A DNA stretch of 64,000 nt from Escherichia phage SP27: sequence record LC494302.1; one strand, written 5' to 3'. Positions 16,714 to 32,148 of the stretch are shown here, piece by piece. The notes under the pieces were generated by a model. The model saw nothing but the letters and a program-made list of their open reading frames with translations, made no database searches and was not told where the DNA came from. The position numbers and the translations under genes are program-made. Numbering within the stretch: the first letter of the stretch is position 1; each line of letters begins with the position of its first letter.

Positions 16714-17373
16714 ATGAAATCAAAATTAGGTTTGTTTTATAAAAACTATTTTGTTAAACAACGTAAATTTATAAAAAAATATTTCTCTGGCGAGAAGTCT
16801 AGTCCTATAATCTTTAAAAGACCAAGTTATAATACTTACTTAGCTGGTGCTAAACAGTCTAAGAAATTTATTACTCTTTTACATAAAAACAAAATTAAAG
16901 CTTCTTATGTTGAAACGAGAAGAAACTCATCAATAACTCCTGGTGATTTTATTGAGTACGGATGTTTCAATATTAAGTACAATGATAATACATACTTTAT
17001 GGATATTGATTGTAATACATCCAATCTTTTTAACATTGTAGTAAATCCATTAAAACAATATAATGTTTATGGTGATTCTATTATCAAATTAATCAAAAAC
17101 AAAGATAGCTTTGATTTTGAAATAAATGTTTTAGATGATAATTTTGACGAAGTACCAGTAAACCCTGAAATCTGTGATATTTTAAACAGTTTAAAAGGTA
17201 GTACCTACACTATATCATCTGATTTAATGTTTCAGTACTCATTAATCCATAAAGATATTGAAAAGTATATTGAATGCTCCAGAATTTTGAATTTTCTCTA
17301 TGATGAATTTAAAAAGAGTTCTAAAATAACTGCATACACTTTGTACAATATTCCTAAAATGGTGAATCTTTAA
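16714..17373 (+). CDS. hypothetical protein
   Basis: AAGGAG RBS; last + strand gene, 3' end overlaps the convergent - strand gene by about 20 nt. Confidence 0.55.
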   Translation: MKSKLGLFYKNYFVKQRKFIKKYFSGEKSSPIIFKRPSYNTYLAGAKQSKKFITLLHKNKIKASYVETRRNSSITPGDFIEYGCFNIKYNDNTYFMDIDCNTSNLFNIVVNPLKQYNVYGDSIIKLIKNKDSFDFEINVLDDNFDEVPVNPEICDILNSLKGSTYTISSDLMFQYSLIHKDIEKYIECSRILNFLYDEFKKSSKITAYTLYNIPKMVNL

Positions 17374-17777
17374 CAAATACAGTACTGGCAACTCCACCGT
17401 CTGTAATATATTGTCCAGTACTGTAAATTTGTATACCATCGGTTAAGTAAGTTCTGTATAAAGTTGCTGTAACATATACGTTATTCATATTCATCTCTAT
17501 TGGTAGTACACATTTGGTATAGGCCGACACATCTGTTTGTGTACCTATACCCAATTGACCTGCGTTATCGCCTGTGTTATTACCAGTTGCGTAAACACCC
17601 AATGAAGTTATAATATGATTAGAAAAATATGAATAACCCAAACTCTTGAGATTCTCTACTGTACAACGTACCATCTGACATAAGGGCAAAAACTGTTGTA
17701 TCAGATGAAGCTATTTTTGTTACAGAAGGTTGTATGTTCTGTTTTGATGATGTGATAATTCTTCGAAAGGGTAGCAT
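17354..17777 (-). pseudogene. truncated, frameshifted RCC1-family paralog
   Basis: MLPFRR start with GGAGG RBS at 17777 runs about 50 codons to a stop; RCC1-like C-terminal part (GQLGIGT) continues in another frame as track ORF 17354..17689. Confidence 0.35.
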
Positions 17778-17823
17778 TGTATCCTCCAAATGTAAATCGT
17801 TATTATATTTAGGACAAAAAAAT
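17778..17823 (-). promoter_or_regulatory. degenerate copy of array leader cassette
   Basis: partial match to conserved cassette upstream of truncated paralog. Confidence 0.35.
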
Positions 17824-17842
17824 GCCAGTACAAGGCACTGGC
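17824..17842 (-). terminator. array hairpin terminator (GCCAGTAC..GCACTGGC)
   Basis: hairpin followed on - strand by U-rich tract; approx coordinates. Confidence 0.55.
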
Positions 17843-17849
17843 ATAAAAT

Positions 17850-19019
17850 CTAAGCAGAAGGCATATCCTTCATCTTAATAAATGAAAATTGTGTACCAGT
17901 ATTTGTGGTTTGATCAGTAAAATATGAATTACTACCAGCCCAGTACAATTCATTATTAACTATACAATATATAACAGAACTCGAACTCTGTGAATACACA
18001 CGACTTATATTTGATGGTTCTACTCCAGTACTGAACTGAACCGAACCCAACTGTGAACTTGGTATCACATCAGTTGGTCTACCTAAACCATTAACACCAG
18101 CCCCACCACCACATGTATATACCCCAGTACTATCAGTTGATATATTAACATAACCATTTCCAGCATTTTCAAATAGTATTTCACTGGGAACAACACCAAA
18201 TCCTGTAAGATCTATTTTCCTGAATGTAGTATAAACCGTAGAACCGCCAACACCTCTTCCACCATAATCATTAGAACCAGCCATATAGATACTATATCCA
18301 GAACTTCCTAAACATAATAACTGTACGTTGTCATATAATATTTGCATAGATATAACGTTATCAGGAATACTCAATACCGTAAAAGTAGTTAAAGAAGAAC
18401 TTCCAATATTACTACCAACCGATGTTCCACATCTGTAGTACTTACCGCCCTTTATATAATGGAATGATGAACCACCTAATTTATGTGCTCCTATTGCACT
18501 TACCTCAGTATCTATGAGAATGGGAGATACAACTTTGTTATTAACACCTAACTCAGATCTACTGTTCATACCGAACCCATATAAACGACCATCTAACATC
18601 AATATTAGTGTACTACCTGATGTACCCGCTGATGTAAATTCTATATTCTTTATCTGTGACACGTCAATACCTACAAATAATGAAGTTACTTCAGTCCAGT
18701 TAACATATGAACCACTAGCCCCAAAATATCCACCCATGTATAGTCCGGCACAATATAACTTATTATCAACCGTCTTTATTAATGTACCGGATACACACGC
18801 CCAAAAATCATCAACTTCATAGGGTACATGTACCCAACCACCTAATACATCACTATCATTCCCTGTTCCTAATTTGTAGTTCGATCCAGAACCACGCATA
18901 TACATATTCCCTGTACTATAAAGTAATCCGACATGTAATTGACTACCATCCAATTTCTTTATTTCGGGAAGAGTTGGTTTAATATTTCCGTACTTTAACA
19001 TTCTTCCAAAAGGTAACAT
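17850..19019 (-). CDS. RCC1-repeat (beta-propeller-like) protein, family R
   Basis: true start MLPFGRM at 19019 with GGAGG RBS (track ORF extends into leader); RCC1-like motifs e.g. GSNDYGGRGVGG. Confidence 0.8.
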   Translation of the reverse strand: MLPFGRMLKYGNIKPTLPEIKKLDGSQLHVGLLYSTGNMYMRGSGSNYKLGTGNDSDVLGGWVHVPYEVDDFWACVSGTLIKTVDNKLYCAGLYMGGYFGASGSYVNWTEVTSLFVGIDVSQIKNIEFTSAGTSGSTLILMLDGRLYGFGMNSRSELGVNNKVVSPILIDTEVSAIGAHKLGGSSFHYIKGGKYYRCGTSVGSNIGSSSLTTFTVLSIPDNVISMQILYDNVQLLCLGSSGYSIYMAGSNDYGGRGVGGSTVYTTFRKIDLTGFGVVPSEILFENAGNGYVNISTDSTGVYTCGGGAGVNGLGRPTDVIPSSQLGSVQFSTGVEPSNISRVYSQSSSSVIYCIVNNELYWAGSNSYFTDQTTNTGTQFSFIKMKDMPSA

Positions 19020-19064
19020 AATTCCTCCTTTATTCATTATACTATATTTAATACAAATAAGAAA
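19020..19064 (-). promoter_or_regulatory. conserved array promoter/leader cassette
   Basis: - strand TTTCTTATTTGTATTAAATATAGTATAATGAATAAAGGAGG; TATAAT -10-like box, no clear -35. Confidence 0.5.
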
Positions 19065-19083
19065 GCCAGTACAAAGTACTGGC
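19065..19083 (-). terminator. array hairpin terminator
   Basis: GCCAGTACTTTGTACTGGC then TTTCTTATTTG (- strand). Confidence 0.6.
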
Positions 19084-30796: not shown

Positions 30797-30842
30797 ATTT
30801 CCCTCCTTTATTCATTATACTATATTTAATACAAAAAGAAAT
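30797..30842 (-). promoter_or_regulatory. conserved array promoter/leader cassette
   Basis: near-identical copy. Confidence 0.5.
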
Positions 30843-30861
30843 GCCAGTATCAAGTACTGGC
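30843..30861 (-). terminator. array hairpin terminator
   Basis: GCCAGTACTTGATACTGGC + U-tract. Confidence 0.6.
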
Positions 30862-30867
30862 ATAATA

Positions 30868-32046
30868 TTATCGGTTAAATTTAAAATCTGTTATGTGTGT
30901 CCATGTATGATTTAATGGGGTACTCATTGGTGTAAAGCCAGCAGGGTCTGACAAAGCTGTACCACGTGCGTACATAAATTGATTGCCAGTACAATCCATT
31001 ATAGCATAAGAACGTGTTGCTGTGCCACATTTGAACCCAACTGCACTACTTGGGGTCGGTAATACTTCAAATGTAGGTGCATTTGAACTACCACCCCCAT
31101 CTTTTGTTCCAGCTATGTACAGAACTCCATTAGTATCAATGATTAAGTTAGTCCAATATGCTTGTTCTCGACCAGCATAAAAATATGTTAAATCACCGGG
31201 TACAAATGGTAACGTTCCTTTATATATTGTGGTATTAACATTCACTGGTGCACCAGCTACACCCCATGAACTCATATAGTTTCTCCCACTTGCGTAGAAT
31301 GTAGTTCCTTTACCGTAAAGTATTAATGTTGCTTGACTTGTTCGCATTGCATTATATTCAAACTCAGGATCATCAGTAGCGTCCTTAAAAATCTGTGTCC
31401 ATGTTGTTATATTGCCAGTAGTTGTAACACCCATTTGATAATAATAATTATCACCAGTAGCATAGAATTCTTTAGGGCCAGTTTGTACAATTGCATTCCC
31501 ATTAGTTAACCAAAAATCTAATGTATTAGTCTTGATCTTGGTTGGTGTGTAATTCGCCACGGTATTTCCTTTTCCGAAATAACCATTAGCGTTATTTCCA
31601 TGACCCCATAAATCACCATTAGTTGTGCGTAGGAATAATGTACCAGTATTGAATCCAACTTTTTCTATAGTACTTATGTCAATACCAACAGTCGTGTACT
31701 TCGTTGTAAAATCTTGAAAAGTACTCCAATAATTAGATGAACCATTAAACATGGTTTGTCTACCAGTGTACTTCACTTTATTATCGTTAGTGATAAGTAA
31801 TGTCCCCCACACTGACGCGAACATTAACTTAACATTTTCCATAACAAAGTATGGCTTACCGTATGCTGACGCGGTAGTGTTTAAACCTAATAGTTGTCCA
31901 TCATTACTACAACCCCATACTTCGCCGTTATCCAAAAGCATCAACATAGTAGGTTTGCCGGATGATACATCCAAAAAGAAATCTTTTGGTGTTGGTACAC
32001 CAGGTACAATATTTCCGTACTTAACCATTCTTGTAAAAGGTAACAT
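30868..32046 (-). CDS. RCC1-repeat protein, family R (first gene of the array)
   Basis: true start MLPFTRM at 32046 with GGAGGG RBS; motifs GHGNNANGYFGKGN. Confidence 0.8.
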   Translation of the reverse strand: MLPFTRMVKYGNIVPGVPTPKDFFLDVSSGKPTMLMLLDNGEVWGCSNDGQLLGLNTTASAYGKPYFVMENVKLMFASVWGTLLITNDNKVKYTGRQTMFNGSSNYWSTFQDFTTKYTTVGIDISTIEKVGFNTGTLFLRTTNGDLWGHGNNANGYFGKGNTVANYTPTKIKTNTLDFWLTNGNAIVQTGPKEFYATGDNYYYQMGVTTTGNITTWTQIFKDATDDPEFEYNAMRTSQATLILYGKGTTFYASGRNYMSSWGVAGAPVNVNTTIYKGTLPFVPGDLTYFYAGREQAYWTNLIIDTNGVLYIAGTKDGGGSSNAPTFEVLPTPSSAVGFKCGTATRSYAIMDCTGNQFMYARGTALSDPAGFTPMSTPLNHTWTHITDFKFNR

Positions 32047-32094
32047 AAATCCCTCCTTATTCATTATATCATATTTACCCCATAAAGAAAACCC

Positions 32095-32123
32095 TTGACA
32101 TCCTTTCAGTACTGGTGTACTAT
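32095..32123 (+). promoter_or_regulatory. sigma70-like promoter for S1 array (divergent junction)
   Basis: TTGACA-17-TACTAT about 25 nt upstream of ATG 32149. Confidence 0.5.
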
Positions 32124-32148
32124 AGAAGGAATATAAGGAGAACTACAC

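Follow-up and report, generated by a model that had tools for sequence, protein, structure and literature searches.

Jumbo coliphages of the Asteriusvirus group carry arrays of genes annotated as encoding DNA condensation proteins, among them 121Q_234-248, PBECO4 gp286-296 and phAPEC6 gp001-010/549-551. Both the multiplicity of these genes and the detection of their products in virions have already been published (PMC7247149, PMC5259590), and a role in condensation or in the inner body of the capsid has been suggested by analogy with eukaryotic RCC1 (PMC7247149, PMC11370258). Here we analyse the same locus and genes in Escherichia phage SP27 (sequence record LC494302.1), using a stretch of 64,000 nucleotides (64 kb) that is referred to below as the window and in which the array occupies positions 17354-32148 of the minus strand. 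The SP27 cassettes are 85-100% identical to those of the described arrays and have the same flanks and orientation. However, the published condensation/inner-body interpretation finds no support in the composition of the proteins or in their domain partners. We propose instead, with a probability of roughly 0.55, that a short N-terminal leader shared by the array proteins is a virion-incorporation (docking) peptide, and that the array holds a library of binding modules, shuffled by recombination, which the particle displays.

Comparable arrangements are found in branched multi-receptor-binding protein (multi-RBP) systems, specifically CBA120 TSP1-4, RaK2/K64-1 gp526-534 and the KP32/KP34-type RBP2 'conserved peptide' (PMC10253068, PMC6872550, PMC13352976), where different distal modules likewise share a conserved N-terminal element, which there mediates attachment to the particle and exchange of modules. 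The SP27 proteins differ from these in that the conserved element is only ~12-15 residues long, the bodies probably form monomeric β-propellers (in one case a small glycine-rich domain) rather than trimeric β-helix spikes, a depolymerase signature is absent, and the genes lie outside the tail-fibre module. A further parallel is T4 Hoc, whose dispensable, surface-displayed binding domains (Ig-like, at hexamer centres) are proposed to provide weak adherence and may be compared with the hexon-centre decoration of 121Q, although a propeller is not an Ig fold and many paralogs stand here against one gene in T4.

A megablast search with 17000-33000 matched only Asteriusvirus jumbo coliphages, in a patchy, mosaic manner and at 81-99% identity, with vB_EcoM_E9.1 as the best match (79% coverage at 95.7% identity), and the right flank of the array behaved likewise. 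By these matches SP27 is an Asteriusvirus, a Rak2-like jumbo coliphage of the 121Q/PBECO4/phAPEC6 group, and the description of its genome as T4-like in the original prediction, which had been made from the window alone, was wrong. Taking MLPF methionines as the real gene starts, the array consists of 13 head-to-tail units with MLPF at every start. Of these, 11 are genes for RCC1-like propellers, one of them with a frameshift, another encodes a glycine-rich protein that is not RCC1, and the last is a copy with an internal deletion. The 13 paralogous minus-strand genes that had been predicted in tandem are therefore present, and the proposed count of twelve intact or near-intact genes plus one truncated copy stands, with the qualification that one of the twelve (J) is frameshifted and the terminal copy is fragmented. 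The gene starts as first read do not survive, because open reading frames (ORFs) of 411, 433, 376, 398 and 251 amino acids in the mechanical list run through an upstream Shine-Dalgarno sequence, in which AATAAAGGAGG translates as "NKGG". The apparent overlap of 27266-28567 with 28476-29606 is thus an artefact of such read-through. Twelve of the units are read-through ORFs with lengths of 245-400 amino acids. Cassettes are lettered below by ortholog cluster.

Pfam PF25390 (RCC1-like domain) is matched by 11 members with E-values of 5e-13 to 5e-30, and 10 of the 11 pass the curated cut-off of PF00415 or PF13540, J having only a sub-threshold RLD hit; matches of array members to phrog_4219 reach an E-value of 6e-113. 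Searching with a profile of the paralog alignment retrieved 111,592 library proteins at E ≤ 0.001, with giant multi-domain proteins on top, which confirms the RCC1 superfamily and is uninformative on leader or function. One propeller, member K (21506-22681), was modelled with AlphaFold2 (AF2), using paralogs and orthologs as input, and gave an all-β structure with a pTM of 0.86 and a pLDDT of 82.6. When compared with the PDB using Foldseek, this model matched the RCC1-like domains of UVR8, RPGR, RCC1 and HERC (E 1e-15 to 8e-20, TM 0.74-0.78), with individual values of E 8e-20 and TM 0.74-0.78 for UVR8 and E 8e-16 for RCC1 (1a12), and from these matches K is predicted to be a seven-bladed RCC1-like β-propeller. 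Profiles and predicted fold thus agree with the RCC1 propeller identity that had first been read from repeated motifs. A word-indexed protein search with K found 9 close orthologs and no distant context; RCC1 propellers also occur within annotated tail-fiber proteins of other phages. Cassette H, by comparison, has no Pfam match at E ≤ 0.01 and no RCC1 signal; the best PDB matches of its AF2 model (pLDDT 91.8) are to the fiber of cyanophage Pam3, the tail tip of Bxb1 and the glycine-rich domain of ALK, and all of them are weak.

Conservation among these proteins is concentrated in the leader. Pairwise identity between paralogs is 24-46% (median 30%), and an alignment of 11 sequences contains 12 invariant columns, 9 of which fall within residues 1-15 (M1, L2, P3, F4, R6, M7, Y10, N12 and P15), which confirms the suggestion that a conserved N-terminal module precedes strongly diverged bodies. 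The consensus, M-L-P-F-x-R-M/I-x-x-Y-G-N and usually then I-A-P, covers 12-15 residues and heads both RCC1-like and glycine-rich bodies in this array. AF2 assigns a pLDDT below 50 to leader residues 1-12 of propeller K and 1-10 of glycine-rich H, and in both models the leader is predicted to be disordered or flexible by itself.

The same leader is found well beyond Asteriusvirus. In Pectobacterium phage CBB all seven of CBB_548-554 start with MLPF..Y[GA]N, yet their bodies are Kelch propellers and Laminin_G_3 domains and not RCC1, and GAP32_001/002 begin likewise. A tblastn search with the leader identified ~60 jumbo-phage records, the hosts of the leader-bearing phages being Escherichia, Salmonella, Erwinia, Klebsiella, Cronobacter, Serratia, Yersinia and Pectobacterium. 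By this search the Salmonella phages Munch, 7t3 and SE_PL have 11-12 copies each, Klebsiella fENko-Kae01 has 9 and Erwinia Hallingskeid 8, and further leader-bearing phages include GAP32, CBB, Serratia BF and Yersinia fHe-Yen9-04. Since the CBB and GAP32 leaders keep the residues while their synonymous codons differ, the leader peptide itself is under selection. Within the window, all 12 full units open with ATG TTA CCT TTT, and the synonymous positions of the leader (TTA, CCT, TTT, AGA and AAT) are invariant in 12/12, with a joint P of ~1e-19 relative to body codon usage, which points to recombinational homogenisation on top of selection on the peptide.

The DNA between the genes is equally regular. 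Long junctions (n = 10, 70-108 nt) follow the order hairpin plus T-run, box AAATATAGTATAATGAATAAAGGAGG and ATG, where the hairpin is GC-rich, has the form GCCAGTAC-N3-5-GTACTGGC and is followed by the T-run. Terminator-like sites number 22, compared with 7.0 ± 3.0 in shuffles, and the box occurs 9 times at ≤3 mismatches, against 0 expected, and in the 64 kb only in the array. Most units therefore look autonomous at the sequence level, with their own terminator hairpin, promoter-like box and strong ribosome-binding site ahead of the leader, while cassettes C and D, which have no junction cassette, are probably co-transcribed with their predecessors. The box holds a perfect TATAAT, but a sigma-70 scan found no -35 element and, with 74 sites against 76 expected, did not single out the cassettes, so that the promoter assignment draws only on the conservation of the TATAAT-containing box. 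In phAPEC6 (138000-187000) a T4-like late motif, ATAAATA, is found upstream of genes for the capsid, scaffold and baseplate at a distance of 35-65 nt (gp225c, 226c, 229c, 231c, 232, 238, 242, 244, 245 and 253), and this motif has also been reported for CBB. The difference between the two elements suggests that the RCC1 cassettes may form a regulatory class separate from the late genes.

It is at these junctions that related arrays exchange genes. We clustered leader ORFs from six Asteriusvirus arrays at 60% identity, leaving out CMSTMSU, whose array is riddled with frameshifts and whose record is marked UNVERIFIED, and obtained 27 clusters with an order that differs between phages: L G C B A F H E K J D I in the window, D L G C B A F H E K I in E9.1, N B C G M F H E K J D I in phAPEC6, A B C B F H A E O J D in 121Q, G C B A F R E Q P in PBECO4 and a C Z A Y X G W D V U T L S in EJP2. 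Arrays thus vary between related genomes, a comparison that the original prediction had called for, and the order and content of the SP27 cassettes are unique to this isolate among the six phages compared. The ends of inter-phage homology blocks within the array lie, in 26 of 27 cases, between -60 and +80 nt of a leader ATG, an interval that makes up ~12% of each unit, which argues that exchange operates on whole genes and that crossover takes place in the junction plus leader. Repeated DNA in the region is likewise confined to the junction (92-135 nt, 12 copies, ~1.2-kb spacing), and because the gene bodies carry no DNA-level repeats, the array is not a mis-assembled, repeat-rich gene broken into fragments, an outcome that the original prediction had allowed for and that collinearity with six independent genomes also rejects. 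No long direct repeats beyond the junction that would suggest a diversity-generating retroelement were found, a reverse transcriptase not having been searched for.

Ortholog dN/dS values of 0.02-0.36 indicate purifying selection and leave positive selection unsupported at the whole-gene level. Since the orthologs are under purifying selection, these are working genes whose diversity stems from old divergence and shuffling; the diversifying function once predicted for the array is thus upheld as regards old paralogs and whole-cassette exchange, but not as regards rapid substitution. T4-type phages reportedly contain PeSL mobile regulatory cassettes, in which a stem-loop and promoter flank variable ORFs (attributed to Arbiol and colleagues, 2010). 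By architecture, the SP27 array resembles these in having a conserved stem-loop and promoter-like element at recombination breakpoints and in shuffling whole genes, but its homology block reaches ~45 nt into the coding sequence, that is, into the leader, and its ORFs belong to one functional class. The literature on Asteriusvirus arrays that we consulted for comparison describes neither a leader that crosses genera and domain types, nor the terminator-promoter-leader junction as a recombination site, nor an argument against the 'condensation' label.

Incorporation of these proteins into the virion is well supported. Tandem mass spectrometry with electrospray ionisation (ESI-MS/MS) of purified phAPEC6 virions detected gp003, 005, 006, 007, 009, 010, 549 and 551 (PMC7247149), which are 8 of the 10 annotated array members. 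In SP27, cassette E has 100% identity with gp005, K with gp006 and J with gp007, and the values are 99.7% for D against gp009 and 99.5% for I against gp010. Among the detected proteins is the frameshift-truncated, 30-kDa product of gp007 (PMC7247149), whose presence fits an N-terminal incorporation determinant. CBB_548, 549, 551, 552, 553 and GAP32_001 are also MS-confirmed virion proteins (PMC5259590), and RCC1 proteins of the same PHROG are present in the virion of the Vequintavirinae phage W70. One alternative is that the array encodes non-structural intracellular proteins, for example for host takeover, which are carried over into virion preparations, and that the conserved 5' end is a translation or recombination element. 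The low peptide counts and the promoter box unlike the late motif would be compatible with this, and the invariant synonymous positions of the leader within Asteriusvirus could reflect selection at the nucleotide level or gene conversion. However, the proteins have been detected independently in three or four phages of different genera by different laboratories, including the 8 of 10 in phAPEC6, and across genera it is the residues that are conserved while codons vary, which shows that the peptide itself is selected. We therefore think this alternative very unlikely.

The composition of the proteins bears on the published interpretation, according to which they would act in DNA condensation or as an inner-body scaffold and organise the 350-kb genome in the capsid. 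That view can draw on the RCC1 name and fold and on presence in the virion. However, lysine and arginine make up just 5-7% of residues, aspartate and glutamate 5-8% and Ser/Thr/Asn/Gly/Gln/Tyr 46-56%, with a largely neutral pI (5.1-9.2), and composition analysis finds no basic tail on the array proteins, so that this proxy for RCC1-type DNA binding fails; a charge-poor composition rich in Ser/Thr/Asn/Gly is typical of fibre or adhesin domains. The label has been transferred from eukaryotic RCC1, an exchange factor for Ran, which bacteria do not have, whereas the fold family is a generic interaction scaffold and the best fold matches are to UVR8, RPGR and HERC. Moreover, MS abundance in phAPEC6 is low, a set of 12-15 diverged paralogs that are freely swapped, truncated or deleted among isolates is unlike a core packaging role, and the same leader also heads Kelch, lectin-fold and glycine-rich domains. 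A condensation or scaffold role is in our view hardly credible.

A further possibility is that the array encodes packaged internal cargo. The T4 internal proteins IPI-III carry an N-terminal capsid-targeting sequence, which ends in an L/I-x-E prohead-protease site, and their locus is polymorphic. By analogy, the SP27 leader would be a capsid-targeting sequence and the proteins would be loaded into the prohead or inner body and ejected with the DNA, the propellers then acting in the cell, for example as a protein-binding repertoire that neutralises host defence proteins. The two loci are alike in their short shared N-terminus on unrelated bodies, their variable arrays and their virion products; an inner body exists in 121Q and phAPEC6, and the cassette promoter is unlike the canonical late motif. 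However, the leader is not known to have sequence similarity to the T4 capsid-targeting sequence. Residues 1-20 lack a conserved Glu (at position 9 the window proteins have K, N or M, and E occurs there only in some members from EJP2 and CBB), and no L/I-x-E motif was found at the end of the leader in alignments of the window, CBB and GAP32 sequences. The array proteins are also large (25-45 kDa), near-neutral, charge-poor and β-rich, in contrast to small, highly charged internal proteins; their partner domains (the Laminin_G_3 lectin fold, Kelch and fibre-type glycine-rich domains) are typical of external adhesion modules; and stable seven-bladed propellers would presumably have to unfold to cross the tail tube. 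We regard packaged cargo as rather unlikely, and its fuller form, in which MLPF is a capsid-targeting tag for a swappable propeller and lectin-fold arsenal injected with the DNA to disable host defence proteins, as somewhat less likely still. Were it true, the system would be a jumbo-phage counterpart of the T4 internal proteins on a larger scale, with 12-15 cargo types per phage and at least 27 types in six phages.

We hypothesise instead that the leader is a docking peptide, which would attach each protein to a common site on the particle during assembly, while the rest of the protein would be an interchangeable β-rich domain, an RCC1-like propeller in 11 units and a fibre-type glycine-rich domain in one. 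This domain may be exposed on a particle with a 'hairy' head and tail, where it could bind host-surface or environmental ligands, probably glycans. Hair-like fibres on the head and/or sheath, together with a decoration at each hexon centre, are known from 121Q, phAPEC6 and CBB, and since 121Q and phAPEC6 have an inner body as well, the particle offers physical room for the proteins either outside or inside. The ~140 nt of junction plus leader, nearly identical between units, would serve homologous recombination, by which whole cassettes may be swapped, reordered, duplicated or deleted between related phages, so that every isolate would come to hold a repertoire of its own. That the proteins are exposed at the surface and bind ligands is what we infer; the receptor-binding or adhesin role proposed in the original prediction is consistent with virion presence, with the Kelch and Laminin-G partners in CBB and with the fibre-like composition, and the anti-defence repertoire that it named as another option may also apply.

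Several points weigh against this reading. Virion position, leader role and ligand binding are all reached by inference. The phAPEC6 peptide counts are low, at 1-5 unique peptides and 3-17% coverage (PMC7247149), which may reflect low copy number or, for some members, co-purifying contamination. The inner body of 121Q and phAPEC6 makes an internal location physically possible, the cassette box (ATTAAATA + TATAAT) differs from the canonical late motif ATAAATA, and the resemblance of H to phage fibres is weak (E 1.7e-3, TM 0.31). Finally, a globular propeller of 40 kDa does not by itself account for hairs of 100+ nm.

The array takes up ~4% of a 350-kb phage genome, and the sequence gives no support to the 'chromosome condensation' label that databases pass on for its genes. 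Should the leader be a portable incorporation tag, it would explain the 'hairy' decorations or accessory adhesin coats of Rak2-like jumbo phages as well as the differences in repertoire between near-identical isolates, which would be relevant to host range and to therapeutic phages, and it would provide a natural tag of 12-15 residues for displaying foreign domains on jumbo-phage particles. The junction also illustrates clearly how cassettes are exchanged through homologous recombination at a module that combines regulatory sequence with the leader.

The units are described here in order of transcription (L, G, C, B, A, F, H, E, K, J, D, I and the degenerate terminal copy), all on the minus strand. 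Cassette L, an RCC1-like propeller of 392 amino acids with orthologs in E9.1 and EJP2, is transcribed first (30868..32046; start MLPFTRMVKYGN, PF25390 E 3.5e-18, PF00415 above cut-off). The region upstream of it (32047..32148), a member of junction repeat family D2, has a promoter-like box and the Shine-Dalgarno TAAATATGATATAATGAATAAGGAGGG without a complete terminator hairpin. The L-to-G junction (30797..30867) has the full order of hairpin GCCAGTAC..GTACTGGC, T-run and AAATATAGTATAATGAATAAAGGAGG, and leads to cassette G, an RCC1-like propeller of 400 amino acids (29594..30796; profile, start and ortholog clustering). Only 8 nt, consisting of the Shine-Dalgarno, separate G from C, an RCC1-like propeller of 369 amino acids (28476..29585; profile and start), which is why C is probably co-transcribed with G. 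The next long cassettes, identified like those that follow by hairpin and box scans, lie at 28406..28475 (C to B), 27195..27265 (B to A), 25975..26045 (A to F) and 24716..24786 (F to H). They separate the RCC1-like propellers B (379 amino acids, 27266..28405) and F (395 amino acids, 24787..25974), both assigned from profile, start and clustering, and A (382 amino acids, 26046..27194), assigned by profile and responsible for the phrog_4219 match at E 6e-113.

Cassette H (23978..24715, 245 amino acids) combines the shared leader with a glycine-rich domain that is not RCC1 and whose homologs carry PF21722. PF21722-type homologs of H in other large phage contigs have no MLPF leader, and many of them share another N-terminus (MLELL.., MIELL.., MFEMML..), a hint that phages of other groups may use an analogous leader system of their own. 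The glycine-rich homolog of Salmonella phage PVP-SE1 is a single gene beside DNA polymerase with a different N-terminus, and it does not sit in a similar array. The phAPEC6 record has three array genes missing or mis-annotated, the orthologs of H, F and C, at 14981-16977 and 19497-20606, and its gp004 annotation spans just part of the H ortholog.

Downstream, the H-to-E junction (23906..23977) precedes cassette E (22754..23905, 383 amino acids, 100% identical to phAPEC6 gp005), and the E-to-K junction (22682..22753) precedes the modelled member K (21506..22681, 391 amino acids, 100% identical to gp006), both RCC1-like propellers. The K-to-J junction is 108 nt long (21398..21505) and leads to the frameshifted RCC1-like gene J (20208..21397, 100% identical to gp007). 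The J product has 269 amino acids, encoded by 20588-21397, and ~135 further stop-free RCC1-repeat codons follow in another frame at 20208-20587. The lesion, in the stretch 20208-20620, is a 1-nt frameshift at CAAAATTCACGG and is the same in phAPEC6 gp007 and 121Q_238; programmed frameshifting was rejected, as this site does not form a slippery heptamer and has the look of a 1-nt indel. Cassette D, an RCC1-like propeller of 369 amino acids (19098..20207, 99.7% identical to gp009), has no promoter or terminator cassette of its own, and the D-to-I long cassette (19020..19097) separates it from I, an RCC1-like propeller of 389 amino acids (17850..19019, 99.5% identical to gp010).

The junction from I to the terminal copy (17778..17849) is degenerate, keeping the hairpin while its promoter box has diverged. 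The terminal copy itself (17354..17777) is split into an N-terminal ORF of 52 amino acids (17777->17619) and a C-terminal ORF of 111 amino acids (17689->17354), has a divergent leader (MLPFRRIITSS, no YGN) and an internal deletion of ~720 nt relative to E9.1, 121Q and PBECO4. With its divergent leader, degenerate promoter box and deletion, it looks like a cassette in decay at the array's edge.

Elsewhere, the fEgEco12 paper reports that two 'chromosome condensation regulators' differ between sister phages, whereas the JP4 supplements contain no RCC entries and the Sharanji paper does not mention the array genes. Five consecutive plus-strand ORFs of 104-141 amino acids at 14911-16668, convergent with the array, look by eye like multi-pass membrane proteins and have no detectable similarity to one another. 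CBB shows the same arrangement, its CBB_539-547 'putative membrane proteins' adjoining the leader-protein genes, and the neighbourhood of the array thus seems to be conserved across genera. On the other side of the array, ~18 tandem small genes of 59-77 amino acids occupy the plus strand at 32149-34171 and 35018-36548 and form two paralogous subfamilies with conserved C-termini (..VLKLISI and ..LLIYRY); a 219-amino-acid ORF at 34182-34841 (phrog_29152, function not annotated) lies between the two blocks.

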